Part shown: one piece after another, positions 2,645 to 63,810 of the stretch | How the letters are laid out: each line of letters begins with the position of its first letter | How positions within the stretch are numbered: position 1 is the first letter of the stretch | Source of the DNA: Stegostoma tigrinum | Lineage: Eukaryota | Assembly (NCBI RefSeq): GCF_030684315.1 | Contig: NC_081399.1 | Location: forward strand, 9,534,113 to 9,598,112 | Length of the DNA stretch: 64,000 nucleotides | Reading direction: 5' to 3' | Program-made: the position numbers and the translations under genes | Notes under the pieces: generated by a model | The model's database searches: none | What the model was told of the DNA's origin: nothing | Seen by the model: the letters and a program-made list of their open reading frames with translations, nothing else

Positions 2645-2768
2645 CAAAAAAGGTCCTGACCGAAACCGTTGGCTTTTCTGCTCCTCTGCTGCTGCCTGGC
2701 CTGCTGTGTTCCTCCAGCTCCATATTTTGTTATCTCAGACTCTAGCATCTACAGTTCGTACTATCTGA
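2645..2768 (+). mobile_element. Short Penelope-like terminal-repeat fragment
   Basis: ...cctgaccgaaac...gctgcctggcctgctgtgttcctccagctcc...ttatctcagactctagcatct, homologous to 33745-33870. Confidence 0.6.
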
Positions 2769-3339
2769 TAGATGTGTGGGATTTGCTCACAGGAGGAAAC
2801 ATCCTTAAGACCATCCAGAAACTTCAAACACGTTACCCTGGGCTGTGATGATTCCAGAAGCCTATCCAACCTATCCCCATAAAACAAGCATCAGTCAAGT
2901 TAACATCATCTAATCACCCTCCAATGCATTTCCGTCCTTCGTTAAATTAGGAGATCAAAACTAGATGCTGCATTACTGTATATGGCCTCTCCAGTTCCCT
3001 GTGTACCTGAGCATTGCACCTTACTTTTGTTTTTAAATGATAGCAGTAAGGTGGTGAAAAAAATCAGCAGGTCTGATGGTGGTGCCTGTGGGGAGAGAAA
3101 ACAGTTGAGTCCAATATGACTTCGTCAGAGCACCAGATACCGTCTGACCCGCTGAGCTTTCTCCAGAATATCCAGCTTTAAAGTTTCTTTCTCAGTACAG
3201 GATAGCATTCCATTAGTGACCTTAATCATTTGCTGTATCTGCACGCCGTCCTCGTGCACAAGAGCTGTCTGCCTCAGAATTCTGCACAAGATCTCCATTT
3301 CAGTATTACCGCACCAAAATTAAACTATCTACATCAGTT

Positions 3340-4477
3340 TAGGTTCCATCAGGGCCATTCGGCTCCTGGCCTCATTACAGCCTTGGTTCAAACACGGTCA
3401 AAATAGCTGAATTCCAGAGGTACGGGAGATTGACAGCCCTTGATGTCAAGGCTGCGTTTGACAGTCTGTGGCATCAGGGAGCCCTGACAAAACTGGAATC
3501 AATGGGTATCGGGGCAAACTCTCTGGTGGTTGGAGTCATACCTGACCCATAGAAAGATGGTCATAGTTATTGGAGGTCAGACATCTCCACTTCAGGATAT
3601 CTCTGCAGGAGTCCCTCAGGGTAGTATCCTAGGCCCAACCATCTTCAGCTGCTTCATCAATGACCTTCCCTCCTTCATAAGGTCAGACGTGGGAAGAAAA
3701 ACAGAAGTTGCTGGAAAAGCTCAGCAGGTCCAGCAGCACCTATGTACAAAACAACCAGTTAACATTTCTGGTCTGGTGACCCTTCTTCAGAAGTGGGGAT
3801 ATTTGCTGATGATGGCACAATGTTTCAGCACCATCCATGACTCCTCGGATACTAAAGCAGTCCATGTCCAAATGCAACAAGATCTGGGAAAATCCAGGCT
3901 TGGGCTGACAACTGACACATCGTGCCACACAAATGCCAGGCTATGCCCATCACCAATAAGAGACAATCTAACCACTGCCCATTGACATTCAATGGTGTTC
4001 CCATCACTGAATCCCCCCAGTATCAACATCCTGGGGGTTACCATTGACCAGAAACTCAACTGAACCCACCACATAAACACAGCGGCTACAAGAGCAGGTC
4101 AGAAGCTGGGAATCCTGCAGTGAGTAACTCCTCTCCTGACTCCCCAAAGCCTGCCCAACATCTATAAGGCACCACATCCAGAAACATCCCACTCCCTGCC
4201 CCCACCGACGCTCAGTCACAGCTGTGTGTACCATCTACAAGACGCTCTGCAGAGATTCACCAAAGATCCTCAGGGAGCACCTTCCAAACCCACGACCCAC
4301 TTCCATCCAGAAGGACAAGGGGCAGCAGGTACATGGGACCCCCACTCCCTGCAAGTTCCACGCCCCATCCTGACCTGGAAATATATCCTTCTTCCTTCAG
4401 TGTTGCTGGGTCAGAATTGTGGGTCAGTCGACAGCACATGGACGGCAGTGGGTCAAGAAGACAACTCCTCTCCCCCC

Positions 4478-4554
<77 letters not shown>

Positions 4555-4625
4555 CCTTCTCAAGGGCATCTAGGGACAAGAGCAATAAACACTGGCCAGC
4601 CAGCAATGCCCACGTCCCACAAATG
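3340..4625 (+). mobile_element. Decayed CR1-group LINE (family B), RT and 3' end
   Basis: RT motifs ALDVKAAFDSLWH, GVPQGSILGPTIFSCFINDL and IFADD; 3' tail gcaataaacactggccagccagcaatgcccacgtcccacaaatgaa; interrupted by an insert at ~3694-3786 and a polyC/(CA)n tract. Confidence 0.85.
3683..3797 (-). mobile_element. Short Penelope-like insert with hammerhead-like core, nested in LINE RT
   Basis: Flanked by tcagacgtggg (3683-3693) and tcagaagtggg (3787-3797); minus strand reads CTGAAGA-agggtcaccagacca-GAAAtgtt. Confidence 0.65.
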
Positions 4626-5009
4626 AACTTTTTTTTAAAAAAGCCTGCATCCTGCTTCATAACATAACTTCAACCTATCTTTCTGTCATTTGCAAATTTA
4701 ATTATGATGCCTTTGATTCCCCTCATCATGTGTCACACCCTGTCAACCTGAAAAAGACTCATCTAATGCATTCTCTCTTTTCTCTCAACAAGCCAATCTT
4801 CTATCCACAGTTCTGCATCCCTACAGTGAGTTCACACTTGGCACAAAAGCCTTTTATGTTGAACCTTATCGAGTACCTTCTAGAAATCCAATTGCAATGT
4901 ATCAATGCCCCCCCCCCCCACCTTATCCAAGCGCATTTAACTCCTTCAAAGTTCCAATAAATTGCTTAAGCCCCACGATCTCCCTTTCACTAAATTACTT
5001 TGGGGTTTC

Positions 5010-16380: not shown

Positions 16381-18399
16381 ATATGGACAAATTAAAACTC
16401 TAACCTCTGTATCCATTTGGCTTAGAGACTCAGGGGGAATATATAGCTTAAGCCAAAGGAAGATTGGTTGGGCTATTCTTTGGTTCCCAATCTCACATTG
16501 TTGAGATGATCCTCGTGTTGTTCTGAATTTTGCACCTCAGTTGTTCTTCTCCAGATGCTTCCACTGGCTTGCAAGAGGTGCAGGGTGGCTGGTTTTCTTG
16601 TGACAGCTCACTTTCTTGTCAGTGAAAAGTCAGAGTTTGCAGCACCTGCTGGAGGGAAAAAAGTGTACTGTTTTAAATCAGATTTGAAATGGACAGGAGT
16701 GACTGGAGAGGTTCAGCAGATCTGGAAGCTGCTGTGGTGAGAGAAACAGATATTTTGAGTCCAGCATGGCTTCTTCCAGACTTCTGTCCTGAACTATTTC
16801 ACCAAGAGCATGCAGATTGTGCTTCAGTCCTGTGGACTTGCTTCATGTGAACAAATAAAACACAATTAATTCCACCCGTGATTGACGGCAAAATGTTTTA
16901 TTTAAGTCTTACCCACCTGCAGTCAAATCAGCGCCGCGCTGTCGGAGGGTCAGCGCCGAAGGAGTGCCACGTGGTCAGAAGGATAATGTTGAGGAGGGGT
17001 TTGAGCTATTTTTTGTGGATCCCCAGCCTCTCCCTACACTTCAAACTCTCCAACCTGAGGAGGAAAGTGGAGGCTTTGAATATATTTTAAGGCAGCGAGC
17101 GAGAGAATGTTTTTAAAGAAGGTGGCGAGAGGTGGGACTGTGGCGTTGTCAGAGATTCCTCACCTCATCAAATGGAGAATCAGGCTCAAGGAATGGAGGG
17201 AAAATACTCATTCTTTTGGTATTCGTGAATCCACAAGTGAGGTGATGGTTTGGAGGTCAGCGATTTCAGAGGCAGGGTGAAGAGCTGTGTTGAGAATCGG
17301 GATGGTTGTGGGGTTTGGAGTGAGCGGAGTTTGAGGAAGTGAGATAATAGAGGTACTGAGGAGGAGAAATTGGGATATGGGGAAAAGGATGAGCCAGAGG
17401 AAGGTGACCGTTTCAAAATGCCTCTCAATGGTATCAGTTTCAGAACTTTGTAGGCTCTGACCAGACCCTCTTATCTGCTACAAAATGGCAGATGCTGGAA
17501 AAAGCAAAAATGGGTCACACTGGGTTCACAGCCTCCTGTCTGTCTCTGCAGTATATTACAGCTCCGTCCTCCGCCAATGTGAGTTTTTGGCGCAATGCTC
17601 CGTCTAGCTAATAACTGTGAGACCACAGTATGCTGTCGACCCAGTGTTCTCAGCAATGGAGCAGGTTCGGATACACTGTAAAGCTCTCTCTACACCGTCC
17701 CCCATCAAACACTCCCAGGGATAGGGACAGCACGGGGTTAGATGCAGAGTAAAGCTTCCATTTTTAAACTGAAAATAAAGGGAACGTAATGGCAGGATAG
17801 GTAGTGCGGCACTAGAGCAAATTTGAATTCATGGACAGCGAGATCGGGGAGGATGTTTAGCCTGTGTGAGTAATATTTGCCTGAATAAGTCCGAGGCTGA
17901 GTGAGTATGCCTAGCACCTGAACAGAAGTTACTGGAAAAGCTCAGCAGGGCCTGGCAGCGTCTGTGAAGGAGAAAAACCAAAGATAACATTTCGGGTGCG
18001 GGGACCCTTCCTCACAGCCGTTCACAGTATCTGCAGTCCTTTCGGTTTTTATTGAGTATATCTGGCGATTTCAAAGTAAGAGGAACGTTTGTCAAGGTCT
18101 TTTTCGAGTTCCATTGTAGTTTGAAGCTAAGAGTCTGACCACAAACTAACAGCCTTTTTGCACATTAAAATAGCCCTCCTTAAACTTGCAGCTGGTCCAT
18201 CGTGACCTTACCTATAAATAACATGAAACCCTCGCGTGAAATTGCTTCCAGCACAAAGCCAAACTGAAAAGTGGCTCCTCCTCGCAGCTTGGCGAATAAA
18301 GGGGTTTTTAACTTCTGGTGTAGGGGAGTCTTTTCCTGGATGAGAGACCTGGGAATTTAGTTCAACGTGGAAATTTAAGGGTGACCTGAGCAAGGGTTA

Positions 18400-18695: not shown

Positions 18696-19204
18696 AGCAG
18701 GCAGCGCAGTGCAGTGTTTGAAGTGTACATGTGGGAGTGACACTTTTTTACAATAATTTCATTGCTGGGCGATGGATGTTCACGATTGTCTTAAAAGTTG
18801 GTGCAAATCAGAAAAGTCTCTTGTTTGGAAAGATGTCGCTATTCTTGGATTTAACTGAGAAACACCGAGAATGAGGAAAAGTCAATCCCAGCGGGTAATG
18901 AAACTCGTCTGAGGCAGACTCCTTTGGAAGGGGACGGAAAAGCAAGTGATGGTAGCACAGCTCAGCGAAGTGGTGCCGGTGGCCCGTCATATGAGGGGAA
19001 ATTGAGGACCTGACTGAGGGAAGGAAGAGAGAAAAGAGCAATAATCATCGGGGGCTGGGGGGAAACAGACTATCCTGTGGCCCATTCGCATGACCAAGAA
19101 GGGCATGCTCTCCCCCTGGGAGCGCGATGTCATAGGGAGACTAAGGGAGGGTGATCAGCCAGTTATGGAGTACCAATGACTTGGAATGTGATCCATAAGG
19201 GAAA

Positions 19205-19650
19205 GGAACTCATGAGTAGGCCATTCAGCCCCTCAAGCCTGCTCCACCATTCAATAGGATCATGGCCAATTTGGCACTTAGAAACATAGAATTTTACAGT
19301 ACAGCCATTCGACAAAACATGTCCATACAAGCTCGCAAAAGATCTACCCAGCCAGCCCTGTCTCCGTAGCCCTCTCAATCCATCACTTCCAAATATACTT
19401 GCAGCTCTCTTCTGAAACCTCGAATGGAATCTGCCTCCACGACTCTCCCAGGCAGTGCATCCCAAATACAAACACCACGTTGTTGAGGCCGCTTCTGGAA
19501 TACTGCGTGTAATCCCGGTCTCCCTGCTACAGGAAGGATGTTGTGAAACGTGAAAGGGTTCAGAAAAGATTTACGAGGATGTTAGAGGGCTTGAGCTACA
19601 GGGAGAGGCTGAGGCTATTTTCCCTGGAACGCCGGGGGCTGAGGAGGCAT
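19205..19650. mobile_element. Adjacent CR1 fragments (minus-strand 3' ends, then plus-strand LEYCV*...ERVQKRFTRML)
   Basis: CR1 3' UTR motifs and ORF2 C-terminal translation. Confidence 0.75.
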
Positions 19651-19810
19651 GTAATAGGGTGGAAAAGGCGTGCAAGCATATGGGGCAAAGGGAAAAGACT
19701 GAACATAGATATGATGCTCAGTTCGAAAGCTGTTGCACACGCAGTGGGTTCAATAAGCTCGATGAGCATTGAAACGATTCTGTAAAATTAAAATCACAAA
19801 GTTTAGACCG

Positions 19811-19985
19811 TCAGTACTTACTGACCCTCTGACAGTGCGGGGCTCCCTCAGTACTGACCCTCCAACAGTGCCCACTCCCTCAGCACTGACCCTCCGACAG
19901 TGCCCACTCCCTCAGCGCTGACCCTCCGACAGTGCCCATTCCCTCAGCACTGACCCTCCGACAGTGCCCGCTCCCTCAGTTCTGA
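19811..19985 (+). repeat. 32-bp minisatellite, ~5 units
   Basis: actgaccctccgacagtgcccactccctcagc, same unit as 47517-50786. Confidence 0.9.
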
Positions 19986-20400
19986 TTCACGTTTAATTTT
20001 CATTGAATTTTGCTGTTTGCATTTTCCAGTGAATGTGACGATATCTGTCCCAAACATGTTGCAGAGAAGTCCATGTTTATCACAACATTTGTTTCACCAT
20101 AGTTCCTCTTGAGAAATTCCCTGCTGGTGTTTTGTCATATCGTGCAGAGCCTCTCAAACTATGGCTGAGCTTTAAATCCCAATAGAACCGGTCTCAGCTG
20201 TCAGGAAAGTGAGCTGGTTTTCATCTGTTAAAAATAGTCCCTGTGGTGTTGATGAACAGATGGAATTTACCATGTCATAAATCCAATACTGGACTCAGCG
20301 TCTCTTTCTCCACCATACTTACGCTGCCCCCAGATGTGTTTTGCGTGATAAATAATCTGTCCAATCTCCATCCGTTCGCCCTGTTACAAAAGCCCGGCAA

Positions 20401-20630
20401 CACCATTTATTGCAGCATCTGTGAAGGGAAAAGCAGAATTAACATTTCGGGTGTTGTGACCCGTCCTCATGACTGTTCTGAGGAAGAGTCACCCCGGACC
20501 CAAAACGCTAACTCTGTTTTCTCTTCCACAGATGCTGCCAGACCTGCTGAGCTTTTCCAGCAACTTCTGTTTTTGTTCTTGATTTCCAGCATCCGCAGTT
20601 CTTTTAGTTTTTATCACCATTTATTGCAGC
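20401..20630. mobile_element. Fold-back Penelope-like short element with 16-bp TSD
   Basis: caccatttattgcagc at 20401-20416 and 20615-20630; imperfect inverted arms each with a degenerate hammerhead-like core. Confidence 0.75.
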
Positions 20631-23329: not shown

Positions 23330-24485
23330 AGATGTGGCTGGCGATAACTTCCAGTCACGTTCTTTTAAGGTTTCAAGGATGCTTTCCTGACTGGAGGCCT
23401 GTGATCAGCGGTGTTCCTCAAGGATCAGTGGAACTCCCGTTGTTTGTAATAAACATGAATGATTCGGCTGAAAATGTAGGCAGTCAATTAGTAATTTTGC
23501 AGACAGCATAAACAGTGGTGGGTTTTGTGGATTGTAAAGAAGGACATCAAAGGATACAGCAGGATATAAATCAGTTGGGAAGTTGGGTGGAAAAATGGCA
23601 GATGGAGTTTAATCCAGACAAGTGTGCGGTGATAAGGTGTGGAGCTGGAGGAACACAGCAGGCCAGGCAGCATCAGAGGAGCAGGAAAGCTGACGTTTTG
23701 GTCTGGACCCTTCTTCAGAAATGGGGGAGGGGAAGGAATACATTCTTGGAGGTCAAACGCAGGAGGGAAGTATACAGTAAATAGCAGGGACCCTGAGGAG
23801 CATTGATATACAGAGGGGTCTTGGGGTGCAAGCGATTAGCTCCCTGCACGTGGATCGGGTGGTAAAAAAGGCTTATGGCGTGCATGCTTTCATCGGTTGG
23901 GGCACTGAGTATAAATGTTAGCAAGTCATATTGCAGATGTATAAAACTTTTATTAAGGCTGTATTTGGAGTATTGTGCGCAGTCCTCGTCACCACGCTAT
24001 TGGAAGGATGTGGAGGCTCTGGAGAGGGTGCAGAAGAGGTTTACGAGGATGTTGCCTGGATGGGGATGTATTAGCTACAAGGAGAGAGGGTGGACAATCT
24101 TGGACTGTTTTCGCTGGAGACTGAGGGGCGACCTGGTAGAAGTGTATAAAATTATAAGAGGTATGAATGGATGCAACTTTTCCCGGGGTGGGCATGTCAA
24201 ATACTTGGGGGCAAAAGTTTAAGGTGAGAGCAGGAAAGTTTAAGGGAGGTGTGTGAGGCTAGTGTTTTTACACAGTGGGTGGTAGGCGTCTGGAGTGCAC
24301 TGTGGGAGAAGGTGGTAGAAGCAGATGCAATAGCAATGTTTAAGAGGCATTTACTCAGACACACATGAAGAGGCAGGGAATAGGGGGACATGGATCATGT
24401 GAAGGCAGATGGGATTAGTTTAGAATGGCATCATGGTCAGCACAGACATGGTGGGCCGAAGGACCTGTTCCTCTGCTCCCGTCCT
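23330..24485 (+). mobile_element. Decayed CR1 LINE with a nested Penelope-like insert (~23632-23738)
   Basis: GVPQGS, WQMEFNPDKC, LEYCAQ...ALERVQKRFTRMLPG; the insert splits the KCAVI / HxGG-like motif. Confidence 0.9.
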
Positions 24486-26317: not shown

Positions 26318-26564
26318 ACCAAAAACATCAGTGACTGACTTCATTGCATTCCCTCCCAGAAGAGTAAGGAAATAAAATGTTTCGAATTCTCTTTGTTAAT
26401 ACACATAGCTGACTTTTCTTGATTGTCCTAAACTATCTCATCCTTCATCATTGAGAAAATACAAGCCATCTATATCACTGCCAACAGTTTTCATATCCTT
26501 CCAGTTTTCTGATGCCTCTTTTGCTGAGGAATTGTTACAATTGCTTCAGGGATAGCAGCAGCTA

Positions 26565-26718
26565 CAGATACTGGAGAATCTGAGACAACAAGGTGTAGAG
26601 CTGGATGAACACAGCAGGTCAAGCAGCATCACAGGAGCAGGGTCGAGGCCCGAAACATCAGCTCCTCTGATGCCGCTTGGCCTGCTGCGTTCATCCATCT
26701 TTACACCTTGTTATCTCT
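26565..26718. mobile_element. Fold-back Penelope-like short element
   Basis: acaaggtgtagagctggatgaacacagcagg ... cctgctgcgttcatccatctttacaccttgt inverted arms; central ggcccgaaacatc. Confidence 0.7.
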
Positions 26719-33130: not shown

Positions 33131-33234
33131 ACACTCTGATAAGAAGATCAAAACTGCACACAATACTCCAGATAATAAAATGTGAGGCTGGACGAACACA
33201 GCAGGCCAAGCAGCATCTCAGGAGCACAAAAGCT

Positions 33235-33262
33235 GACGTTTCGGGCCTAGACCCTTCATCAG
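33235..33262 (-). ncRNA. Minimal hammerhead ribozyme core (left-arm copy)
   Basis: Reverse complement reads CTGATGA-a-GGGTC-TA-GGCCC-GAAAC-GTC. Confidence 0.6.
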
Positions 33263-33744
33263 AGAGGGGGATGGGGGGAGGGAACTGGAATAAATAGGGA
33301 GAGAGGGGGAGGCGGACCGAAGATGGAGAGTAAAGAAGATAGGTGGAGAGAGTGTAGGTGGGGAGGTAGGGAGGGGATAGGTCAGTCCAGGGAAGACGGA
33401 CAGGTCAAGGAGGTGGGATGAGGTTAGTAGGTAGCGGGGGGTGCGGCTTGGGGTGGGAGGAAGGGATGGGTGAGAGGAAGAACCGGTTAGGGAGGCAGAG
33501 ACAGGTTTCTGCCTCCCTAACCGGTTCTTCCTCTCACCCATCCCTTCCTCCCACCCCAAGCCGCACCCCCCGCTACCTACTAACCTCATCCCACCTCCTT
33601 GACCTGTCCGTCTTCCCTGGACTGACCTATCCCCTCCCTACCTCCCCACCTACACTCTCTCCACCTATCTTCTTTACTCTCCATCTTCGGTCCGCCTCCC
33701 CCTCTCTCCCTATTTATTCCAGTTCCCTCCCCCCATCCCCCTCT

Positions 33745-33772
33745 CTGATGAAGGGTCTAGGCCCGAAACGTC
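33745..33772 (+). ncRNA. Minimal hammerhead ribozyme core (right-arm copy)
   Basis: CUGAUGA box, GGGUC/GGCCC helix II, GAAA box, palindromic ACGU in place of helix III, GUC cleavage triplet. Confidence 0.6.
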
Positions 33773-33939
33773 AGCTTTTGTGCTCCTGAGATGCTGCTTG
33801 GCCTGCTGTGTTCGTCCAGCCTCACATTTTATTATCTTGGAATCTCCAGCATCTGCAGTTCCCATTATCTCTGACACAATACTCCAGATATGGTCTCACC
33901 TGGGTCCCTGGACAATTGCATCAAGATTTAGCAGATAGA

Positions 33940-34072
33940 CTCAGAGATAGTAGGAACTGCAGATGCTAGAGTCTGAGATAATACTTTGTAGAGCTGGATG
34001 AACACAGCAGGCCAAGCAGCATCAGAGAAGCAGGAAGGCTGACGTTTCGGGTCAGGACCTTTCTCCAGAAAT
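33940..34072 (-). mobile_element. Penelope-like terminal fragment
   Basis: Homologous to 33745-33873 in reverse, with core CTGGAGA...cccGAAACGTC. Confidence 0.7.
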
Positions 34073-34559
34073 GAAAATAGACTGTTGCCTTTTATGCCTC
34101 TCCAGGGCACGACGATCGTAGCTCTATGGCTTTTGTGATCAGACCTGACACAAAGACCTTTCCCTGTTCCAACGTTTGCAAAACACACCTCAAAAAGTGT
34201 GAAATTCCAGCAGGATGGGGTCTTTCCCTCCGTCAACGTCCTTCTCAACATCTCCCCGAGAGGCATGGTGACCCTCAGGTTAAACTCACCACATTATCTC
34301 TCTCTAATGAGAGAGCAGCTCTATGGTCTTGTGGGAGCATGACAATGTAACCTCTATTAGTGACATTACACACCATGAGTCCATATTCCAAAGAAAAGTT
34401 CAATTCGTTAATAAGGTTCGGAATGAAAAGCCACTCCCAGGGGTGATAACTGGTTACTGTTTATGAATATAACATCTGTCTGGGTTCACTGAAGCCTCTA
34501 AGGGAGGTACATCTGTGGATCTCGCCCAATCGAACCTCCAGACACACAGTGATAAATTG

Positions 34560-46332: not shown

Positions 46333-47516
46333 ATATCTGAAGAAATTTTCCCATCTGATTTCATATTCTTTTGGCTAACACACGCGCTATTGTTTTCTTT
46401 CTAATTAATCTTTAGGAATTTCTTTGCAGTTTTGTTTCAATTCTGTCCAATATTCTGAACTATCACTGAAATTTGCAGAATGATACGCCTTTCCTTTGAG
46501 GTTGAGACTATCTTTGACGTTTTTGTTAAGCGCAGGTGAAGGATCCATCATTTGTTTTTCACATTTGTAAGAGTGCATCTGCCCAGTCGTTCCAGGAATA
46601 TACATCTCGAAATGCACTCAAATAAGAGCTGTGGATGCTGGAGGTCTCAAACAGAAGCAAGAATTGCTGGAGAGACTCAACAGGTCGGGCAGCATCTGTG
46701 GAGAGAAAGCAGAGTTAAGGTCTCCAAACTGGCGACACTCATCAGAGCTGTTAGACACTCAGATGAATTTATGCTGAAGTTGGAGGATGGTGAGGAGTGT
46801 GGTTGGGAAGGGGTTAGCAGATTAGTGAAGATGGACCCAAGACAGAGAAAGAGAGAGAGACAAAAGGGATAGATAAAGAACGAGATAATACATACAGGGA
46901 GGTGACAGAATTAAAGTTTACTAAGTGATAATAAGGGTAAATAGTGCGAAAATGGAGTAGCTGTGCTGAATGAAATCCATCAGGACTTGGAGTATGTGCC
47001 AATGAAATGAAGAGCAGAAGAAATAGGAGCGGGAGGAGGGTGCCTGGCTTCTCGAGACTGCCCTACCATTTGCAGTTTTCGACTCTGCATTCTGTCTTCC
47101 CAAACGTCCAGGAGACCACTTTGCGAGCAGAAAATAGAGTAGACCGGGTCGGCGCTGAGGGAGCACCGCACTGTCGGCTGATTCCATGTCTATACTTTAA
47201 TGATGCACGATTCTTAAAGCTCCACTTTTTCAGTGTCTGAGCCCTCATTGGACTGTTTTCAAGATGTAAAAAGCAACCAAAGGTTGGGTTATGACCTTGT
47301 GGCGCACATTTTGAAATTGTTGGGTGGAATGTGATAACTTAAACAAACAATGATTTGTTTGTCATCACATGGAATTTTTCCTCTGCAAACAGGTCAGACC
47401 CGTTATGCTGGGAATAACATACAGAACCACAGAGATGGGCCATCAGCCAAAGCTCATGATTAACTTCTCTCATCAGACATTGGGTTTCACACGGGGTGAG
47501 ATACAGTCAGTCTCCG

Positions 47517-50500: not shown

Positions 50501-50786
50501 CTCTCTCAGCACTGACCCTCCAACAGTGCCCGCTCCCTCAGCAATGACCCTCGGACAGTGCCCGCTCCCTCAAGACTGACCCTCCGACCGTGCCCACTCC
50601 CTCAGCACTGACCCTTCGACAGTGCCCACTCCCTCAGGACTGACCCTCTGACACTGCCCACTCCCTCAGCACTGACCCTCCGACAGTGACACATCCCTCA
50701 GCACTGACCCTCTGACAGTGCCCACTCCCTCACTACTGACCCTCTGACAGTGCCCACTCCCTCAGCACTGACACTCCGATAGTGCG
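47517..50786 (+). repeat. 32-bp satellite, ~100 units
   Basis: Unit actgaccctccgacagtgcccactccctcagc. Confidence 0.97.
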
Positions 50787-50787
50787 G

Positions 50788-53700: not shown

Positions 53701-54662
53701 GTGTGCATGGTGCTGCAAGTTTGGATTTAACTGAGGGATACAGTGACCAGAACTGTGCACGGTGCTCCGAGTGTGGATCTGACTGATGGATACGGGGACT
53801 GGAACTGTGCACGGTGCTCCGAGTGTGGGTCTGACTGAGGGATACGGGGACCAGAACTGTGCACGGTGCTCCGAGTGTGGATCTGACTGATGGATACGGG
53901 GACTGGAACTGTGCACGGTGCTCCGAGTGTGGGTCTGACTGAGGGATACGGGGACCAGAACTGTGCACGGTGCTCCGAGTGTGTCTGACTGAGGGATACG
54001 GGGACCGGAACTGTGCACGGTGCTCCGAGTGTGGGTCTAACTGAGGGATACAGGGACCAGAACTGTGCACGGTGCTCCGAGTGTGGGTCTGACTGAGGGA
54101 TACAGGGACCGGAACTGTGCACGGTGCTGCGAGTGTGGGTCTCACTGAGGGATACAGGGACCGGAAGTGTGCATGGTGCTGCAAGTTTGGATTTAACTGA
54201 GGGATACAGTGACCAGAACTGTGCACGGTGCTCCGAGTGTGGATCTGACTGATGGATACGGGGACTGGAACTGTGCACGGTGCTCCGAGTGTGGGTCTGA
54301 CTGAGGGATACGGGGACCAGAACTGTGCACGGTGCTCCGAGTGTGGATCTGACTGATGGATACGGGGACTGGAACTGTGCACGGTGCTCCGAGTGTGGGT
54401 CTGACTGAGGGATACGGGGACCAGAACTGTGCACGGTGCTCCGAGTGTGGGTCTAACTGAGGGATACAGGGACCAGAACTGTGCACGGTGCTCCGAGTGT
54501 GGTTCTGACTGAGGGATACGGGGACCGGAACTGTGCACGGTGCTCCCAGTGTGGGTCTAACTGAGGGATACAGGGACCAGAACTGTGCACGGTGCTCCGA
54601 GTGTGGGTCTGACTGAGGGATACGGGGAGCAGAACTGTGCACGGTGCTCCGAGTGTGGGTGT
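50788..54662 (-). repeat. 52-bp satellite, ~74 units, derived from CR1 ORF2
   Basis: Plus-strand unit ctgtgcacggtgctccgagtgtgggtctaactgagggatacggggaccagaa; minus-strand translation gives PHSEHRAQFWSPY / PHLEHCAQFWSPY. Confidence 0.95.
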
Positions 54663-54714
54663 AACATCAGAACTTCAGGGTAACAGAACAGTGTGCAGGA
54701 TGTCGTGTTAAAGC

Positions 54715-55280
54715 AGACAAAGATCAACTCTGACAGTCATAAGCCTGGAAACAGCATGGATGAAGCTGTTGTTGAATCTGTTGTTGCATGTTTTCAATCT
54801 TTGATACCTCGTGTCTGAATTGAAGAGTGTGTGAGACAGTAGAGCTGGGATGGGAGGACTCTTTGATGGTGTCAGTTGCTGTTCTGAGGTAGCGGGATGT
54901 ATCGACTGAGTGACTGGATGGAAGTCTGTGATGGACTGGCATGTGTTCACATCTTTCTGCAGTTCCTTGCGGACTTAGGCTGCGCAGTTGCCTCACCGGG
55001 CTGTTACGTCCCCAGATTGGATGCTCTCTATCTTTCTCGAACTGGTCAGGCTCTTGATGAAAATGCTGGGTTTCCTTAGCCTCCTGAGGAAGGAGAGATG
55101 TTGCTGGCACTTTCTTGTCTGTCACATTGACGTGCATTGGCGAGGGCAGACTGTTAATGGTCATCTCTCCCAGGAAGTTGACCCACCTCCCCCTCAGCTT
55201 ATTGAGGCCATTCCCTCCACTCTGCTTCTTGAAGCCGGCGACCAGCTCCTTCGTTTCGCTGATGTTGTGCGAGAGATTGG
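54715..55280 (-). mobile_element. Rex1/Babar-type LINE 3' fragment
   Basis: QQHLSFLRRLRK and RYQRLKTCNNRFNNSFIHAVSRLM resemble the Rex/Babar ORF C-terminus (QRLYFLRRL; RxxNSFFPxAIRL). Confidence 0.7.
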
Positions 55281-56192
55281 TGCCCTTATACTGCCCAATG
55301 TCCGCGACCCGCTAGCTGGTGTAGACTACCAGAGGAACGTGTTGATTTGGTCCCAGGAGGGGGTGGTCGGGTGGGAGCGTGAGCACCCATGGCATTCTGA
55401 ATCGCTTCACTTCCCGCCACCGCACCCCCCCCCACCCCCCGCTCCTTCACGGTGTCAGGTCAGCATAAGCCAGTGCCCACCTTACCCCTGTGTGTAGAGC
55501 CTTCCCTGAGACTATATCGGAGTTGGGTGGGGGGGCATGCTCTTTCCAGAGCCATGGTCCATTTGGGCAATGCCCAGTGTGCTTCCCGTCATGGCGTCTT
55601 TGAGCTGTGCCAATTCAGATCCAAAACCCCCAGACCAAAGGATGCTCCCCTTCGCTCCTGCAGGGCCTCCCACTCTTTGCCAACTCCTCAAAAGACACAT
55701 GACTTGCCATTGGCTGCCAAACGCATGTCTGCTTTGGGAACATTTTGGCGTGTCAGGATTCACAGAGACAGATCTCTTCCCTCGCTCCATCCGTGTCATT
55801 TGCTCACCATCTGTAGGCTCGGAGCTTTGTTCCTGATTAAAGCCACGTTTCTCTCCATGGCCCCTCCCTGTGACCACAAACTCCCAGTCTCTGGGGAGAG
55901 CAGAGTCTCTGGAATTCACTCTCGTTTGATGCTTGCGGTCACCATCTCATTCTCACAGCTTTTCCTGCTCTCTTCACCAGCATTTTCCTTGGCTCCAGTC
56001 CCATTCTCTTCCCACAGTTATCCCGACTTACAGAACCTCAGAGTACAATGGGTACTTGATCAGATCAGGGTTATATCTAGATTTATTGACAGTTATATTC
56101 ATTCTGACACTTATGCTGGCCTATGGCTATCCACACCAAAGGAAGTCTCAACAAATATCACCTCTTGGTATTCATTGATGTTACCATCACTC

Positions 56193-56902
56193 AACAAAGA
56201 GACCTTGGGGGAGGCGGACAGGTTCATAGCTCCCTGAGAGTGGAGTCGCAGGTAGACAGGGCGGTGAGGGAGGTGTTTGGGACACTGGCCTTTATGGGTC
56301 AGTGCATTGAGTACAGGGAGCTGGGAGGGTCATGTTGCGGCTGTACAGGACATTGGTTAGGGCCACTTCTGGAATACTGTGTGTAATCCCAGTCTCCCTG
56401 CTACAGGAAGGATGTTGTGAAACTTGAAAGGGGTCAGAACAGATTTACAAGGATGTTGCCAGGGTCGGAGGGTGTGAGCTACAGGGAGAGGCTGGGGCTA
56501 TTTTCCCTGGAGCGTCGGAGGCTGAGGGGATGACCTTATAGAGGCTTATAAAACCATGAGGGGCATGGATAGGGTGAATAGACAAGGTGTTTCCCCCAGG
56601 GGCAGGGGAGTCCAAAACTAGAGGGGCATAGGTTAAAGGTGAGAGGGGGAAGGGAACTGAGGGGTAACTTTTTCACACAGAGGGTGGTGCGTGTATGGAA
56701 TGAGCTGCCAGAGGAAGTGGTGGGGGCTGGTACAGTTACAGCATTTAAAAGGCATCTGGATGGGGACATGGATAGGAAGGGTTTAGAGGGACATGGGCCA
56801 AATGCTGGCGAATGGGACCAGATTAATTTAAGACATCGGGTTGGCGGGGATGATTTGGACTGAAGGGTGTTTCTATGCTGTACATCTCTATGACTCTATG
56901 AA
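56193..56902 (+). mobile_element. CR1/HER1 3' fragment (subfamily with shared lesions)
   Basis: Near-identical to 29484-30185; tail ctctatgactctatgaatctatg. Confidence 0.9.
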
Positions 56903-57287
56903 TCTATGCCCTGAACAGCTGAAATGTTGTGAGCAACGTCGTCACAGACTTGAGCAGGTATCAAGAGGCTGGTGGGGTGGGCAGAGAAGTAGCAGTTCTA
57001 GCTCAGGTTGGAAAAAACACAACATGTTGCGATCAAAGCAAGGAGAGATTACTTAACCTGAAAGGTACAATTCTGAAGCGGGCTGTGAGGTGTGCAAGGA
57101 GCAGAGGGACCTGTGTGTCTCACTGTGGGTGGCAGGACCAGTTGATAGATCAGATTATTGAAGATTGAGAATGCAGGTAATGAAAGAATATGACATCTGA
57201 GCTTTCTGTACTGAGGTGCAAGGTACCTGAAGGGTACCTCACTGGCTGGGCCAAGCTGGAGTATTGTGTCCAGTTATATTGCCACAC

Positions 57288-57835
57288 TCATGCCAGACTA
57301 TGACCATCATTACCAAGGGAGGTCACATCAAAATCACCTCTTGACATTCAACGTTGTTTCCATCACCAAATCCCCCCACTATCAACATCCTGGGGGTTAC
57401 CATTGACCAGAAACTCAGCTGGACCCACCACATAAACACAGCAGCTACAAGAGCAGGTCAGAGATTAGAAATACTGTGGTGAGTAACTCCTCTCCTGACT
57501 ACCCCCCAAATCCTGCCCCACCATCTACAAGGCACAAGTCAGGAGCAGGATGGGATGCTCCCCACTTGCCCCTGGATGGGGACAGCCCTGACGACAACCA
57601 AGAAGCTCGACACCATCCAGGAAAAAGCAGCCCCCACATCCACAAACATCCCACTCCCTCCCCCTACCGATGCTCAGTCACAGCAGTGTGTACCATCCTC
57701 AAGATGCTCTGCAAAGATCCTCAGGCAGCACCTTCCAAATCCCACGGCCCACTTCCATCCAGAAGGACAGGGGGCAGCAGGTACATGGGACCCCCACCCC
57801 CTGCAAGTTCCCCTCTGAGCCCCTCCCCATCCTGT
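57288..57835 (+). mobile_element. CR1-group LINE family B fragment
   Basis: Homologous to 6860-7430. Confidence 0.85.
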
Positions 57836-58599
57836 AAAGGTGGCATGTTTTTGCTTTTTTTCTGCATTTTCAATGGCAGACTGAAATGAGAAAGGGACAA
57901 TTTTAAAAGCCAGGGATTGCTAAATGTTTTAAAAGTGAGTAACTTGGCAAGCACTGTTTACACAGCTGCTGCTTCAAGCCTTGGTGTAAGTGTAGTTTGC
58001 AGATGAGCTGGAGCCAAAGGATTGCGCACAAAATGGAGATTCAGCCAGCAACAATTAGCTGATTGGTCTGTGCACTAGGCTTCAGTTATCGATGGCAAAG
58101 GCATCCTGCTTGGCAGCAGCTATGTGGTTGACTGTGACTTTCAAATAATAAGTTGGAGACCTTTTTTTTCGCTGCAAGGTGGGAAAAAGCATCCAGCGAA
58201 GGATGACTGCAAAGCAGCGGATGGCCGGAACAAAACTTATCTTAGCAGATGCTGCGAACACGAAGCTGCTTTAGATCATAACCCCTGTGTTGCCTCGTTG
58301 GTGTCTGCGTGTGGAAGGGCCAGTTTTTAAGGGGATGAGAGATTTAATTTGTGGCATTAAGCGCCAATACGTTATAATTGTTTATCTGCAGCTAGAGTCT
58401 GATTACTCGTGAAAAATGGTGACTTTTTTAAAAAAAATTCAAATATTGAGACCTGGTCTATGCTTTCTGTCAACCTGGGTCTGAAAATCAGGTCAATGTT
58501 TACACATTTCTATAGAATCTTTCATTTCAGTGATGAATCCAGAATTGAATGTGAAGTGCACTCACTGTTCCTTCAGTGTCGCTGGGTCCATAAGGCATA

Positions 58600-59287
58600 G
58601 GGACAGAATGGATCAATTCAGGACATCAAGTCAGCTGAATAGTGGCTGATCTGCTTCTCGGCACCATTCTCCTGCCTTTTCCTCATAACTCTTGAACCTC
58701 TTATCAGTCAAGAAGTTATCTATCGCTGTCTTAAACAGACTCAAAACTTGCCCTCCACAGCCCTCTGTGGCAATGGGTCCCATAGATTCTCCACCCTCTG
58801 GCTGAAGAAATTCCTCCTCATCTCAGTTCCAAAGGGTGGTTCCATCACTCTGAGGCTGTGTCCTCGCGTTCCAGTCTCCCCTCCTGGTGGAAACATCTTC
58901 CCTCACCTCCACTCTATCCAGGCCTTGATGGGTCTAGGCCCGAAACGTCAGCTTCCCTGCTCCTAAGATGCTGTTTGGCCGGCTGTGTTCATCCAGCTCC
59001 ACACCTTGTTATCTCAGATTCTCCAGCATCTGTAAGTTTCTACTCTCTTTTAGTATCCTGTAAGTTTCAATCAGATCCATCCCCTCATCCCTCTGAACTC
59101 CATCGAGTACAGACCCAAAGTCCTCAACCGTCCCTCATATGACAAGCCCTTCATCCCCGGGATCATTGTTGCAAACCTCCTCTGGACCCCCTCCAACACC
59201 AGCACATCCTGCCTTAGATACTGGGCCCTAGAAATGCTCACAATATTCCAAATGAGATCTGACCAGAGTCTTATACAGTCTCAGCAC
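58600..59287 (-). mobile_element. CR1 3' fragment with a nested Penelope-like insert (~58926-59045)
   Basis: Minus-strand LVRSHLEYCE motif; insert contains gggtctaggcccgaaacgtcagc. Confidence 0.8.
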
Positions 59288-59436
59288 TTCATCACCAAAA
59301 GGCGTAGAGACCTACCCTGAGTGATTTTTTTCCTGTCAGCGCTGTGGCGATGTCCGACTGTCTGGTCGTAGGGCTGATTCAGACTCAGTCTTTCATGGAA
59401 CCACAAGGTCCATGCAGCTTCCTCCTACCTGGCTAC

Positions 59437-59872
59437 TGTCAGGACAAATAGCAAAGTGGAGTCAAGTCTGGAGACCCTTAGTGCAAGCAATCTTTATTCA
59501 GAGCTCTGTTAGCGCATATGTGGGAGGGAGCAGAGACCACTCTGAATGGGCCGCTGTTGTCCTCTTAATACAGCTCAGATTGGAGTCAATGACGCTCTGA
59601 GTTCCCAAGCGAAATACAACATTTTCAAACCCTTCGTGTTATAATTATTCCATGCAATGTTGATGTCAGTGTTAGCCATACTCCCCACGATCTTATACTT
59701 TCAATCCTCTAAAGATCAATGATGGGCAACTCTCTAATCAGCTCTAGGCCATCCCATAATTACATGATGTCTACGAGATACCTCTGTCAACCATCTTTGG
59801 GACCTTACAATGTTTCTGACAGTTTTAGTCCTTCTGAGACATGTGCCAGCTGGACTGCATTATTTTCCAACA
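59437..59872 (-). mobile_element. Possible solo LTR
   Basis: Minus strand TGTTGG...CCAAT...TATTAA...AATAAA...ACA in LTR order; no matching TSD found. Confidence 0.35.
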
Positions 59873-60099
59873 ACCTAAAAACTTGCTTTTCACTGAGAAC
59901 ATTTCCAAATTCTGTCCTGACTTTAGTGTAGCAGATTAGGAAGGATATTAATTCCTGCTGATTGTTGTAAGGGCTTTAAAAACAACTCTCGCATAAAATT
60001 CCTGTGAGACAGCTGACAAATTGAGAACAGCCCCTCTCTCATTCTAGCCCAAGAGACCAAACAAACAGCATTCTGACTTGGCAAGATCTGCAGATGCTG

Positions 60100-60420
60100 G
60101 ATTGGATTAGATTAGATTACCTACAGTGTGGAAACAGGCCCTTCGGCCCAACAAGTCCACACTGCCCATTGAAGCATCCCACCCAGACCCATCCCCCTAT
60201 AACCCACACACCCCTGAACACTATGGGCAATTTAGCATGGCCGATCCACCTAGCCTGCACATCTTTGGACTGTGGGAGGAAACCGGAGCACCCGGAGGAA
60301 ACCCACGCAGACATGGGGAGAATGTGCAAACTCCAAACACATAGTTACCTGAGCCTGGAATTGAACCCAAGTCCCTGGTGCTGTGAGGCTGCAGTGCTAA
60401 CCACTGAGCCACCGTGCCGC
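60100..60420 (-). mobile_element. Full-length HE1-type SINE
   Basis: ggcggcacggtggctcagtggttagc head, GGTTCAATTCC B box, (aatct)n tail. Confidence 0.92.
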
Positions 60421-60794
60421 CCAAAAAGTCAGAAACAATACAGTGTGGAGCTGGAGCAACGCAAGCAGGAAGGGCCCAGACCCGAAGCCTCAACTTTTGT
60501 GCTCCCCTGAAGCTGCCTGGCCTGCTGTGTTCCTCCAGCTCCACACTGTGTTATCTTGTCTCCTGGCCTGCAGCTATAGTTCACAACTCCTGTGATTTAC
60601 ATGCTGTAAGTCAACTGTAAACTAAAGTTTTGTTTTGAAGTAAATCTTTACTGGTTCCACTCTAAACTGTTTCCATTGCTGATTAGCTTTTCTTAGTAAA
60701 AGCATTTATTAGAATTCCACTCATGAAATTCAACTACTTTACAACTTTACCAAGCCATGAAACAAATCCACAAACAACTCGGGCATCACAACCA

Positions 60795-61010
60795 AACAAA
60801 AACAAAAAGAACTGTGGATCGTGTAAATCAGAAACAAAAGCAGAAGCTGCCAGAAAAGCTCAGCAGGTCTGGCAGCATATGTAAGGAGAAATCAAAATTA
60901 ACGTTTTGGGCCTGCGTTCTGAGGAAGGGTTGTTTGATCCGAAATGTGAACTCCATAGTCCACGGGTACTGCCAGGCCTGCTGAGCTTTTCCAGCAATTT
61001 CTATTTTCGT
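60795..61010. mobile_element. Fold-back Penelope-like short element (a second lies at ~60430-60575)
   Basis: aaaagctcagcaggtctggcag ... ctgccaggcctgctgagcttttcc inverted arms; CTGAGGA...ccGAAAtgt core. Confidence 0.7.
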
Positions 61011-61254
61011 TAACTTCTCTAATGTTTCTTTCCACAGAGAATCTCATCATATCCAATTTAGATCTACATGGAGGCTATAAATCCAGCCGTGGACATTTGC
61101 TGTACGTAACTGTCGGCCATCTTGTCATCTTGTCATGGGCTGCTACAATACTTGCCGTTCTCTTTTAGGATTCTAAGCAAGCTGTTTCTATTTTATTTTC
61201 ATCATTCTGTTTGCCACAGTATTCACAGCTCGCTCATCCCTATCACCCTGCCTC

Positions 61255-61980
61255 GTTGTGCTGTTTTTCTTTCTTTATCTCTCTTTCTTCCTGCCTTTGT
61301 CTCTCTTTCCCACCCACTCTGTCGCTCCCTTTTTTCTCTTTTTCACTCTCTGTCTCCTGCCATCTCCCATCATTGCCATCATCTCCCTGTCTCTTACCTT
61401 CTCTTTCTTTCTCTCTGTCCCTCCCTCCCTCTCTCTTTCCCCCACTTTCTCTCTTTTTGCTTCTCTTCCTTCTTCTCACCCTATTTCTCTCATTTTCTCT
61501 CTTTCTTACCCTCAGTCCATCTATCCTTCTGTCTCTTTGTCTCTCTCTCTCTATCGTTATACTGTCTTTTCACCGTGTCTTTATCTCCCTTTCTCTGTCC
61601 CTCTCTCCTTCTATCGCTATCTCTGTCTCTTTCCCTGTGCTCTCTTTCTGCTTCTCCATCTGTTGCTATCTCTGTCTCTCTCCACCTCTCCTTCGTTTAC
61701 TATCTGTCTCTTACTGTCACTGTCTTTCCCTCTGTTGATAGCTCCCTCCCTCTTTCTCTCTCTCTCTCTCTTTTCCGTTCTTGCTATCTCTCCGTGTCTG
61801 ACTGTCTCTCTCACACATTCTCTTTCTCCACCGCCCTCCCTCTGCTGGTTTCTCTGTCTCTCTTTCTCCCATTCTCACTCTCTCACCGTCTCTGTCTCCC
61901 TCTCTCCTATCTTTTATGGTCTCTGTTGGCGTCTCTCTCTCTCTCTCTCCGAGCCCCTTTCTCTCTCTGTCCCGCTCCCT
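61255..61980 (+). repeat. CT-rich low-complexity tract
   Basis: Degenerate (CT)n. Confidence 0.9.
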
Positions 61981-63399
61981 ATCGTTCTGGGCCAAATTTT
62001 ACTGTTTGTTTGCTAAGTACAAGTTGTGTCAGGATTATTTTCAGTGGAATTCTCTCTGTGTGGGGCCCAGCAAGATTTCTTGCCAAACCTGAGCAAAGCT
62101 ACCTCATTGACCACTTCCCCTGTCCTTGTGGCATTCCTTGATTCCAATTTATTCTGATCCTACTATTCCCGAATAATTCCCCACTCTGCTGCTGCTGAAA
62201 GACCGCCGTCCCCTGCGCCCGCACCACATTCGTGCCCCCCCCCACCAACCCACCACCACCACCCTGGGGCTGCCCTGCATGTGGCAGATAAGGGCTTCAT
62301 TGATGTCCAGCTGTGTTGATAAGGGTCTCCTGATTCTGGGGGTTTTGTGGAGGGGAGGGGTAATTGATGCAGACAGGAACTGCTCTCTTACCCCAAGACC
62401 GGCTGGAGGAATGCCTGGCATCGTGATCAGAAGGATAGTGACTGTCCCTGTTCTGCCAAGGTCAGTGCCCACCCTCGCTCTAGCCCTGCTGCTGCGCCCA
62501 CCTCCCACCAAGGCTCACGCTCTATGGTGCCATCACTAGCGCCCACATTGCACTCACCCTCACCTAACCACCTCAGCACTGCCTGCTCACCATCCCCCTC
62601 AGGCACATTCCCACCTGCGCTAACAGTAGTAGATGTGCCACCCAGCTTCCAAGTCCCTTATACCTCCCCGTTCGGGAGCGGAAAGTGCCCACAATTGGGT
62701 AGAAAGAGGACAGAGTGCCACACTGCCTGGCATTCTGCTCCTAACGTTCCTGAGCCACTCCCCTTCGGTGGCAAAAGCAGGAAGGTAGATTCTAGTCTGA
62801 AACGTGGCGGGTTAGGAAAAGGTAAGGCGTAAGGAGACCTGGTTGTCACAGTTTGGAGAGAAAGCAGGAGTGGGATACATGATCAGCCATGATAGTAGTG
62901 AATGGTGGCGCCGGCTCAAAGGGCCGAATGGCCTACTCCTGCACACATTTTCGATGTTACAATATCCTGAGGGTGGGACTCTGGCCTGGTGCTGGGGGCT
63001 GCTGTTGAGTGACCGTGAGGGGACGCCCCATCCTTGACAGCAGGCTTTAGCCTGCCTGAGGCCTTCGACCAATGGGCTTCGTGGCTTTGCATCTGTGTGA
63101 AACGGCACGGCGAGGGTGGGGGGCCGTGGCGGGGGTGGGGGGGTGCAAAAGAGGCCAGGTGAAACTGTGAGTATCCACGGGAGGTTCTGAGTGAGAGAGA
63201 GGAGCCCAGAGATCCAGCCAGGCCCAATCCCGCGAGCTGGGTGTGTGTCTCTGAGCGACCGTGCTGCGGTGTTGCAAAGAGAATTACTGGGCCTGCCCCC
63301 GAGGCGTTGTAATGAAGGGAACAGTGTGTTGTGGATGTGCCATAACAGGGGCTCTCTGAGGTTGGCGTATGCTTGAACGCCAAAATCCGTGGATACCGC

Positions 63400-63810
63400 C
63401 ACAGAGCCGTCCAGCGCAGGGATGTTCCCTTTGGCCCAACTCGTCCAGATTTCCCAAACTGAACTATACTTGTCTGCGTTTAGCCCATATCCCTTCAAAC
63501 CTTTCTTATTCATGTAGAGGGGTCCCGACCCGAAATGTCAGCTTTCCTGCTCCCCTGATGCTGCTTGGCACGCTGTGTCCATCCAGCTTCACACCACTTC
63601 ACACCAGATTTATATGCAGCTTGTTTTTAAAAGTGGCCTCACCAACATCTTCTACATTACCCTCCCAACTCCTATACTTGACCAACGAAGGCAAGTGTGC
63701 CAGACACCTCCCTCACCGCCCTGTCTACCTGCAACTCAACTTTCATGGAACAATGAACCTGCCCCCACCCAGGTCTCTTTGTTCAGCCAGGGCCTTCCCA
63801 TGAAGTGTAC
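63400..63810 (-). mobile_element. CR1 fragments with a Penelope-like insert (~63517-63597)
   Basis: MNKKGLKGYG and AEQRDLG motifs; insert ggggtcccgacccgaaatgtcagc. Confidence 0.7.

Follow-up and report, generated by a model that had tools for sequence, protein, structure and literature searches.

Hammerhead-bearing Penelope-like inserts in Stegostoma tigrinum as probable truncated 3' ends of Neptune-type elements

Known systems

EN+ Penelope-like elements (PLEs) of the Neptune and Nematis type are described, in the accessible parts of the sources, as leaving 5'-truncated insertions with a pseudo-LTR (pLTR), an inverted 5' copy and a tail (PMC8557442, PMC3846280), and minimal type I hammerheads are on record for metazoan PLEs (Cervera and de la Pena 2014, PMC4209133). 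For Poseidon_Ac of Anolis, the accessible part of the report describes a tail set by two adjacent reverse transcriptase (RT) start sites, an uncleaved RNA template, and cutting and extension of both target strands in vitro (Frangieh et al. 2024, PMC11167929). The defining traits of non-LTR retrozymes are a tandem arrangement of units, ribozymes that are complete and for the most part canonical, and circular RNA (PMC7229834; bioRxiv 10.64898/2026.07.22.740005). Expansion of PLEs in sharks has been reported (10.1101/443036), and our literature search, which reached its sources in part, returned no hammerheads from shark PLEs.

The inserts in the 64-kb window of S. tigrinum DNA (the whole stretch analysed) are very probably 5'-truncated 3' ends of autonomous Neptune-type Penelope elements, likely left by target-primed reverse transcription that stopped early. 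Their structural features match the published anatomy of EN+ Neptune/Nematis PLEs with no difference in kind; truncated, inverted, hammerhead-bearing PLE ends are an already described class, and what we report is mostly known. What sets the window apart is the high density of the inserts (15 loci occupying about 4.8 % of it), together with an asymmetry between tail and 5' reach and a 5' hot spot, neither of which is described in the accessible parts of PMC8557442 and PMC3846280. The likeness to Poseidon_Ac would lie in the two RT start sites with the tail, the uncleaved RNA template and the two-strand cutting, although that element belongs to another clade (Poseidon) and the main text of its report, in its accessible part, does not address how fold-backs form (PMC11167929). 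With non-LTR retrozymes the inserts share a type I hammerhead, an origin from a PLE pLTR and a short unit without an ORF, but they are solo or inverted and their cores are minimal and decayed.

Families and loci

The 13 loci listed in the earlier note each hold a member of family A or B (13/13), and two extra weak copies (3048-3200 and 16653-16782) bring the number to 15. At least two subfamilies had been claimed; two related families were recovered and cover all 15 loci, with median pairwise identities of 83 % in family A (28 pairs) and 78 % in family B (21 pairs). Arm positions are given relative to C3 of the hammerhead core.

The young family A copy at 33158-33890 has a tail-bearing arm (33508..33873, + strand) composed of 237 bp of PLE 3' UTR, a minimal hammerhead with its core complete (C3 at 33745; cleavage predicted after 33772), the pLTR and a tail of about 36 bp, and an inverted tail-less arm (33170..33507, - strand) with a second complete core. 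The arms are identical at 330/330 positions, the tail-less arm reaching 8 nt further 5', and the element is flanked by a perfect 17-bp TSD (left copy 33158..33174, + strand; right copy 33874-33890), of which the last 5 nt of the left copy overlap the end of the tail-less arm. Among the other family A loci, 2645..2766 (+, about +6 to +125) has a tail, a decayed core and no detected TSD; 23632..23740 (-, -22 to +87) is without a tail and, by an empty-site match, lies within an older LINE; the older copy 33940..34074 (-, about -1 to +129) has a tail and a 7-bp TSD; 58926..59048 (+, about +1 to +125) has a tail and lies inside an older repeat, an empty copy of which is present at 31917-32064; and 63517..63600 (+, about +5 to +81) is tail-less, with LINE remnants on either side and no detected TSD. 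Fold-backs are found at 26546..26717, where a tail arm (-, +36 to +129) is joined to a tail-less arm (+, +7 to +92) and a possible decayed TSD is equalled by 11 % of controls, and at 60424..60585, where a short (-) arm (+57 to about +90) accompanies a (+) arm (+5 to +119) with a probable partial tail.

In family B, the tail-less copy at 3694..3793 (-, -2 to +100) lies in a LINE RT frame and has an 11-bp TSD with one mismatch. At 17920..18053 an inverted body (-, +1 to +93) is joined to a tail-only arm (+, +106 to +136), with a decayed TSD of 14 bp. The fold-back at 20417..20614 has a tail-less (-) arm (about -5 to +61), a tail arm (+, -4 to +136) and a perfect 16-bp TSD, the last 5 nt of which match the element; that at 60795..61011 has a tail arm (-, about +13 to +134) and a tail-less arm (+, -3 to +99). 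The long old copy at 46621..47160 (-) retains the tail, the pLTR, a diverged core, a pyrimidine-rich 3' UTR and a GIY-YIG remnant. The extra copies are old and family B-like: 3048..3200 is a fold-back of a tail-less (-) arm (-4 to +91) and a weak tail arm (+, from +51) with a decayed 12-bp TSD, and 16653..16782 (-) has a decayed core and tail.

Link to an autonomous Penelope element

Translation of 33508-33786 gives 86 of 93 aa identical to the read-through C-terminus of P0049 (E 2e-35), a S. tigrinum RefSeq model with a PLE RT motif and a GIY-YIG region, and the stretch matching P0049 ends in the hammerhead. The CX2-5CxxC linker and CCHH motif by which EN+ PLEs are defined in the accessible part of PMC8557442 are present by eye in the partner protein P0047, the last linker Cys being lost in P0049; the label Neptune-type is motif-based and does not tell Neptune from Nematis. 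In genomic run X22, 8,457 reads run on upstream of 33508 and share a single consensus at an agreement of 0.94; this consensus fits the residues that precede the match in P0049, and read depth over the 3' UTR is about 20,000. These reads represent the young A subfamily only, at 85 % likeness. Long family A copies are very abundant in the genome, and the young subfamily alone probably numbers tens of thousands of copies. Depth across the hammerhead region was left out as a truncation profile because bisulfite conversion lowers mapping there. A loose end behind 33746 proved to be core sequence altered by bisulfite conversion and was discarded. The strand-switch joints 33746-33756 and 33746-33762 were set aside because they carry no direction and can themselves arise from conversion.

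The earlier note stated that none of the inserts has an ORF; the 46625 copy, however, extends upstream for some 400 bp and there includes, near 47085-47160, a weak and interrupted remnant of a GIY-YIG region. Picked by eye before scoring, the remnant reached 7.1 bits, a value equalled by 0/200 control stretches, with an E-value of about 0.4 window-wide; it was unrecognised by Pfam, the ESM Atlas and a profile built from more distant, mostly unnamed PLE proteins. Pfam gave no match in the six frames of 54660-64000 and 38971-40100, the rest of the window being scanned with custom PLE profiles only. There is no full-length copy with direct pLTRs (a partial tandem) in the 64-kb window, and the full-length element was not met as DNA in the window or the read data.

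Sequence comparison shows continuity with an RT+GIY-YIG element, strongly for family A (P0049) and weakly for family B. This bears out the second option of the earlier note, extreme 3' truncation of PLEs, family A being the 3' UTR and hammerhead of such an element. Target-primed reverse transcription would stop early and leave short 3' ends; the hammerhead would ride along because it is part of the element's normal pseudo-LTR, and would then decay.

Hammerhead core

Under a strict definition, the core is complete in 1/15 loci (both arms of 33158) and partial or decayed in the others, so the statement that most inserts retain all or part of it was too strong. The 33158 arms have the features of the minimal type I hammerhead, namely the extra nucleotide, G10.1-C11.1 and palindromic 15.2-16.2. 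They differ from the minimal type I hammerheads of metazoan PLEs in that helix I in young family A is only 2 bp long and the predicted lowest-energy fold would pair the catalytic core with the cleavage-site strand in an inactive hairpin. In an alignment of helix II (16 rows, two of them out of register and one cut short), helix II is 81 % paired, 0/4 pairs show two-sided change and the covariation score is 0.085, against 0.092 after shuffling. No hammerhead is among the 58 Rfam matches at E<=1 in the window, which are miRNA models on palindromes, all below the gathering score.

Ends of the inserts

The 5' ends range from +7 to beyond -400, indicating frequent 5' truncation, yet they pile up at the 5' edge of the ribozyme rather than at the cleavage site: starts lie between -5 and +8 of C3 in 12/15 loci (11/15 with the aligner's own start of -19 for 58926). 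The cleavage site itself is the start of 0/22 arms, which is what an uncleaved RNA template would give. The genome-wide data agree, with 720 contigs of run X1 beginning at 33744 with unrelated flanks, and the start hot spot among the loose ends listed is at 33744, not 33773. A candidate explanation in which a hairpin of the nascent cDNA on its own 3' end sets the 5' ends was not supported, as the pairing peaks missed the observed ends in four copies. The 3' ends fall at one of two positions separated by about 36 bp (+87 to +100 or +119 to +136), near 33837 and 33872-80 in reads of young family A, the difference being an optional tail of about 36 bp, within the 30-40 bp looked for at one end. 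The element endonuclease would nick both target strands. With uncleaved RNA as its template, RT would prime at either the distal (tail) site or the proximal one and stop most often at the 5' edge of the ribozyme.

TSDs of 11-17 bp had been proposed for several inserts. Allowing mismatches, TSDs of 7-17 bp beat 95 % of 400 random controls in 6/14 tested loci, the other 8/14 being not above chance, but an exact TSD of at least 10 bp is present in only 2/15 (16 and 17 bp). That inserts interrupt older repeats is confirmed by empty-site matches spanning the junction in 2/14 tested loci (23632 and 58926) and by a LINE RT frame that resumes across the 3694 insert.

Alternative origins of the short copies

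It could be argued that a DNA transposon gave rise to the fold-backs as its MITEs, their hammerhead likeness being incidental, since 7/15 loci are inverted repeats, some with flanking direct repeats. This can be dismissed with near certainty: both arms derive from a single retroelement end but are unequal, their junction points vary, 8/15 loci are single-armed, the TSDs vary from 7 to 17 bp instead of having the fixed short length that the earlier note had named as the mark of a MITE, and there is sequence continuity with an RT+GIY-YIG ORF, which refutes the idea for family A through the P0049 match. The headline interpretation of that note, a non-autonomous retrozyme-like system, is not supported either, given the decayed cores, the 5' ends off the cleavage site, the members that extend upstream and the lack of tandem arrays in the window. 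We do not apply the term retrozyme because the complete core is confined to 1/15 loci, 0/4 helix II pairs show two-sided change and 0/15 loci are tandem; arrays of at least two units with complete hammerheads were found at 0/15 loci, and units bounded by the cleavage site in 0/22 arms.

A version in which some or all short copies are non-autonomous pLTR monomers with transcripts of about 130 nt, mobilised in trans by PLE proteins, would account for the clustering of 5' ends near the edge of the ribozyme, a dedicated short family being likewise expected to have a fixed 5' end, and for short head-to-tail joints of 124-133 bp in 8, 10 and 12 X1 contigs; there are moreover reports of PLE-derived retrozymes from one chondrichthyan and of non-autonomous PLEs with pLTRs from algae. 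We nevertheless regard it as improbable in view of the same absence of tandem loci and of cleavage-site starts, the single locus with a complete core, the upstream extension of the old members 23632 (A) and 46625 (B), and the derivation of the young copy from a long element, of which it is a fragment. Some of the short copies may form a minor subset that amplifies itself, given the clustering of 5' ends and the few short joints in head-to-tail order found genome-wide.

Formation of the fold-backs

Several fold-backs had been claimed, and 7/15 loci are of this kind, all head-to-head: five appear in an inverted-repeat scan (20417, 26565, 33158, 60430 and 60795) and the others are 17920, with its tail-only second arm, and 3134, with a weak second arm. 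In 6/7 (one nearly tied) the arm without a tail has the longer 5' reach of the two, 60430 being the exception with the opposite asymmetry, and this lopsided shape hints at how such hairpins form. It would be compatible with priming from both target nicks on a single RNA; both nicked ends would prime, one per site, and the two cDNA ends would then be joined into a fold-back. We give an origin from two primers on one RNA nearly an even chance. A specific form, read-through twin priming on one uncleaved RNA with head-to-head joining, is put forward more tentatively: the leading RT would start from the proximal site, and the trailing RT, from the tail site, would displace the first cDNA, yielding identical arms, a tail on one arm, a tail-less arm that extends further 5' and the usual stop at the ribozyme's 5' edge. 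A literature search of partly accessible sources, with subscription papers (Arkhipova 2006), Repbase and Dfam beyond its reach, returned no twin-priming model for PLEs.

The inserts may be PLE ends whose fold-backs arose instead when an antisense template allowed self-priming or when the cDNA snapped back, an alternative that differs in one step, its probability overlapping that of the main reading, and that we rate a real possibility somewhat short of even. Self-priming is the published reading of head-to-head PLE palindromes in the accessible part of PMC3846280; identical arms are expected from self-copying, a 3-bp mini-hairpin is possible at the 33158 junction, and 60430 shows the opposite asymmetry. 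With snap-back of a tail-bearing cDNA, however, the tail arm should have the longer 5' reach, the opposite of what 6/7 loci show. In addition, a tail-only arm (17920; joint 33741-33843 in 8 X1 contigs) would need a loop of about 100 nt, and the last 5 nt of both perfect TSDs (33158 and 20417) match the end of the tail-less arm. Taken alone, the published self-priming on an antisense template appears somewhat less likely than two primers on one RNA, and some other route is unlikely. Read-through twin priming, if true, would replace the antisense self-priming explanation and tie the two RT start sites and the two-strand cutting in vitro to genomic hairpins. We note that these inserts offer a test bed, since the probable copy number of the young subfamily makes arm asymmetry and the 5' stop at the ribozyme edge countable genome-wide, and such a count would discriminate between models of PLE inverted-repeat and pLTR-boundary formation.

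Hammerheads in other sequences

Hammerhead pattern scans of viral contigs, genome contigs and a first metagenome set gave no match, and a scan of a second metagenome set gave one locus. In favour of the reading as truncated PLE ends, the hammerhead variant of the inserts is also present in an unrelated metagenome contig (L001), about 160 bp behind a GIY-YIG ORF.

Census and insertion sites

Two related short repeat families occupy all 13 coordinates at which the earlier note had placed inserts of at least two subfamilies, and that claim stands. Profile searches of the window add two weak copies (3048-3200 and 16653-16782), bringing the total to 15 loci with 22 arms, which together cover about 3.1 kb (4.8 % of the window); eight loci belong to family A and seven, including two B-like outliers, to family B. 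On the hammerhead strand the copies extend from a full or partial core to one of two ends, proximal near +90 or distal near +130 (C3 of the core being 0). The two additional copies seem to be a third subfamily; we note by eye an A-T pair in helix II at 3108-3146 and 16752-16790, against G-C in the others, which the alignment did not register.

Some copies interrupt older repeats and LINEs, as had been claimed: empty-site matches place 23632 and 58926 within older repeats (2 of 14 loci), and a LINE RT frame picks up again beyond the 3694 insert. The host repeat names used for the window (CR1, L2, SINE) are presumed from sequence resemblance. Target site duplications (TSDs), also claimed for several copies, are exact over at least 10 bp at only two of the 15 loci, but with mismatches allowed six of 14 loci (46625 was left out) carry duplications of 7-17 bp that are better than 95 % of 400 controls.

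The hammerhead core

The core that most inserts were said to retain in whole or in part is complete in both arms of the 33158 fold-back (33170-33507, minus strand; 33508-33873, plus strand), but the strict pattern matches nowhere else among the 15 loci and no hammerhead is among the 58 Rfam matches in the window. The 33158 core shares the features listed for metazoan PLE (Penelope-like element) minimal hammerheads by Cervera and de la Pena (PMC4209133), namely G10.1-C11.1, a palindromic 15.2-16.2, one additional nucleotide ahead of helix II and absence of helix III. By eye, helix I is 2 bp long in young family A and 3-4 bp in family B. In the predicted lowest-energy fold of the 33158 core (-11.4 kcal/mol, z -0.43) the cleavage-site strand pairs with the catalytic core, a pairing that would be inactive. 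In helix II, 81 % of the alignment cells are paired; none of the changes is two-sided, and the covariation score equals that of shuffles. Two rows of this alignment are misregistered and a third is truncated.

Relationship to autonomous Penelope elements

A degenerate core pattern search found the hammerhead variant of the window inserts on one metagenome contig (L001), where it follows a GIY-YIG ORF at a distance of about 160 bp, and searching with the protein of that ORF brought up proteins of sharks and rays. The RT YIDD motif is present in the Stegostoma tigrinum RefSeq model P0049, together with a GIY-YIG region that Pfam places under its curated cut-off (E 0.0019). In its whale shark relative P0047 GIY-YIG lies above the Pfam cut-off, an RVT_1 match lies below it, and the CX2-5CxxC linker is present, a mark of Neptune/Nematis PLEs (PMC8557442). 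P0049 reads on into sequence identical at 86 of 93 residues to translated 33508-33786 (E 2e-35) and stops within the hammerhead, and because of this read-through family A is, judged by sequence, the 3′ UTR and pseudo-LTR of a PLE. The same identity makes a carpet shark the probable host. The option that the inserts are PLE ends linked to a Penelope ORF is borne out by the read-through for family A; for family B the link is a weak remnant. Copy 46625 leads to a pyrimidine-rich stretch and then a GIY-YIG-like remnant, first picked by eye and scored afterwards, which is the window's top match in a profile search, at E 0.4, and scores 7.1 bits, where the highest of 200 control stretches reaches 2.5; it went unrecognised by Pfam, the ESM Atlas and a profile built from more distant proteins. 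In two further RefSeq models, P0057 and P0048 (Heptranchias and Leucoraja), a GIY-YIG piece of a PLE is joined to domains of host genes; these fusions may be artefacts of annotation, or PLE fragments that have been exonised.

Truncation, TSDs of variable length, an inverted copy alongside and a tail of 30-40 bp on one side are standard PLE features (PMC8557442, PMC8969392), and the inserts have them too. Retrozymes, in contrast, are defined in bioRxiv 10.64898/2026.07.22.740005 and PMC7229834 by tandem units, complete ribozymes and circular RNA; the inserts do not fit that definition, and we do not retain the proposal of a retrozyme-like system. Short head-to-tail joints of 124-133 bp do count against reading the inserts as truncated PLE ends; among the 15 joints listed for contig run X1 they occur in at least 8, at least 10 and at least 12 of 203,232 contigs. 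Also among the joints listed are recurrent opposite-strand joints of 33835-33837 with 33869-33876 (at least 12-31 contigs each), which read as tail-to-tail, proximal end fused to distal end, and are possibly elements inserted in their own ends or fold-back units in chains. A PLE expansion is reported for the whale shark in 10.1101/443036; a literature search, with subscription papers and repeat databases outside it, found no description of shark PLE hammerheads. The inserts are real and of a mostly known kind, with members that are new or little-described.

Abundance of the young subfamily

Four runs were aligned to 33496-33900; their coverage describes the young subfamily at 85 % likeness, under which older short copies mostly fall. 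In X22, a raw bisulfite run of 1,938 million letters, depth across the 3′ UTR is 19,000-21,000 on one strand, and upstream of 33508 8,457 reads continue with a single consensus (agreement 0.94) matching the P0049 residues that immediately precede the read-through match. Roughly 60,000-90,000 young copies would extend well upstream of the ribozyme, if a genome of 3-4.5 Gb is assumed. Among the loose ends listed, 33744 is the starting point of at least 720 X1 contigs, whose flanks are unrelated (agreement 0.37); 3′ ends lie at 33837 and 33872-33880. About 42 % of X22 reads show the CpG guanines 33610 and 33694 as converted, compared with some 98 % for non-CpG positions, and mutation seen in X1 accounts for 14-19 %; the young family looks mostly methylated.

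5′ ends and fold-backs

Two countable regularities, the 5′ starts and an arm asymmetry, bear on how PLE insertions form. Starts fall between -5 and +8 in 12 of 15 loci by alignment and flanks read by eye, or in 11 if the aligner's -19 is used for 58926; its +31 for 46625 is an effect of the diverged core. No arm begins at the cleavage site, and 5′ ends away from it fit uncleaved RNA as the main template (PMC11167929). The cluster could represent run-off at the transcript start. A cDNA hairpin as cause of an RT stop near -5 to +8 failed its test.

Seven loci are head-to-head, in agreement with the earlier note that several copies are fold-backs. The 5′ reach of the tail-less and tail arms, respectively, is -245 and -237 in 33158, +7 and +36 in 26565, -3 and +13 in 60795, +1 and +106 in 17920, -4 and +51 in 3134 (weak arm), about -5 and -4 in 20417 (a near tie) and, in the opposite direction, +57 and +5 in 60430. 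The tail-less arm thus reaches further 5′ in six of seven fold-backs or, leaving out the tie, in five of six; with so few loci the excess is not significant. If a tail-bearing cDNA simply snapped back, the reverse would be expected, a tail arm reaching further 5′. The asymmetry observed is instead what would be predicted if two target primers acted on one RNA and the trailing RT displaced the leading cDNA. Self-priming on an antisense template, the published alternative (PMC3846280), may still account for the fold-backs. A literature search, key subscription papers lying outside it, found no twin-priming model for PLE fold-backs. Both perfect TSDs finish in 5 nt that match the tail-less arm end, and 17920 looks like a classic product of twin priming, a process known from L1; PLEs are not known to have RNase H. 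The arms of 33158 are identical (330/330) and have family-minority alleles in common (at 33814, for example, they differ from about 89 % of X1 depth), which suggests a single template or conversion afterwards. A LINE remnant unrelated to the Penelope family (35165-35280) has its own inverted duplication, with 44-nt arms 82 % alike and 28 nt apart.

Other repeats

Arrays of a 53-bp tandem unit, apparently SINE-derived, lie in opposite orientation at 1-2364 and 28277-28871, 26 kb apart and about 94 % alike. Two satellites abut at 47522-54665, with 102 copies of a 32-bp unit, also found at 19820-19979, and 75 of a 52-bp unit. With these satellites, 71-bp arrays at 11161, 37449 and 43531 and a G+C content of 50.6 %, the window resembles a chromosome region that is dense in repeats and GC-rich.
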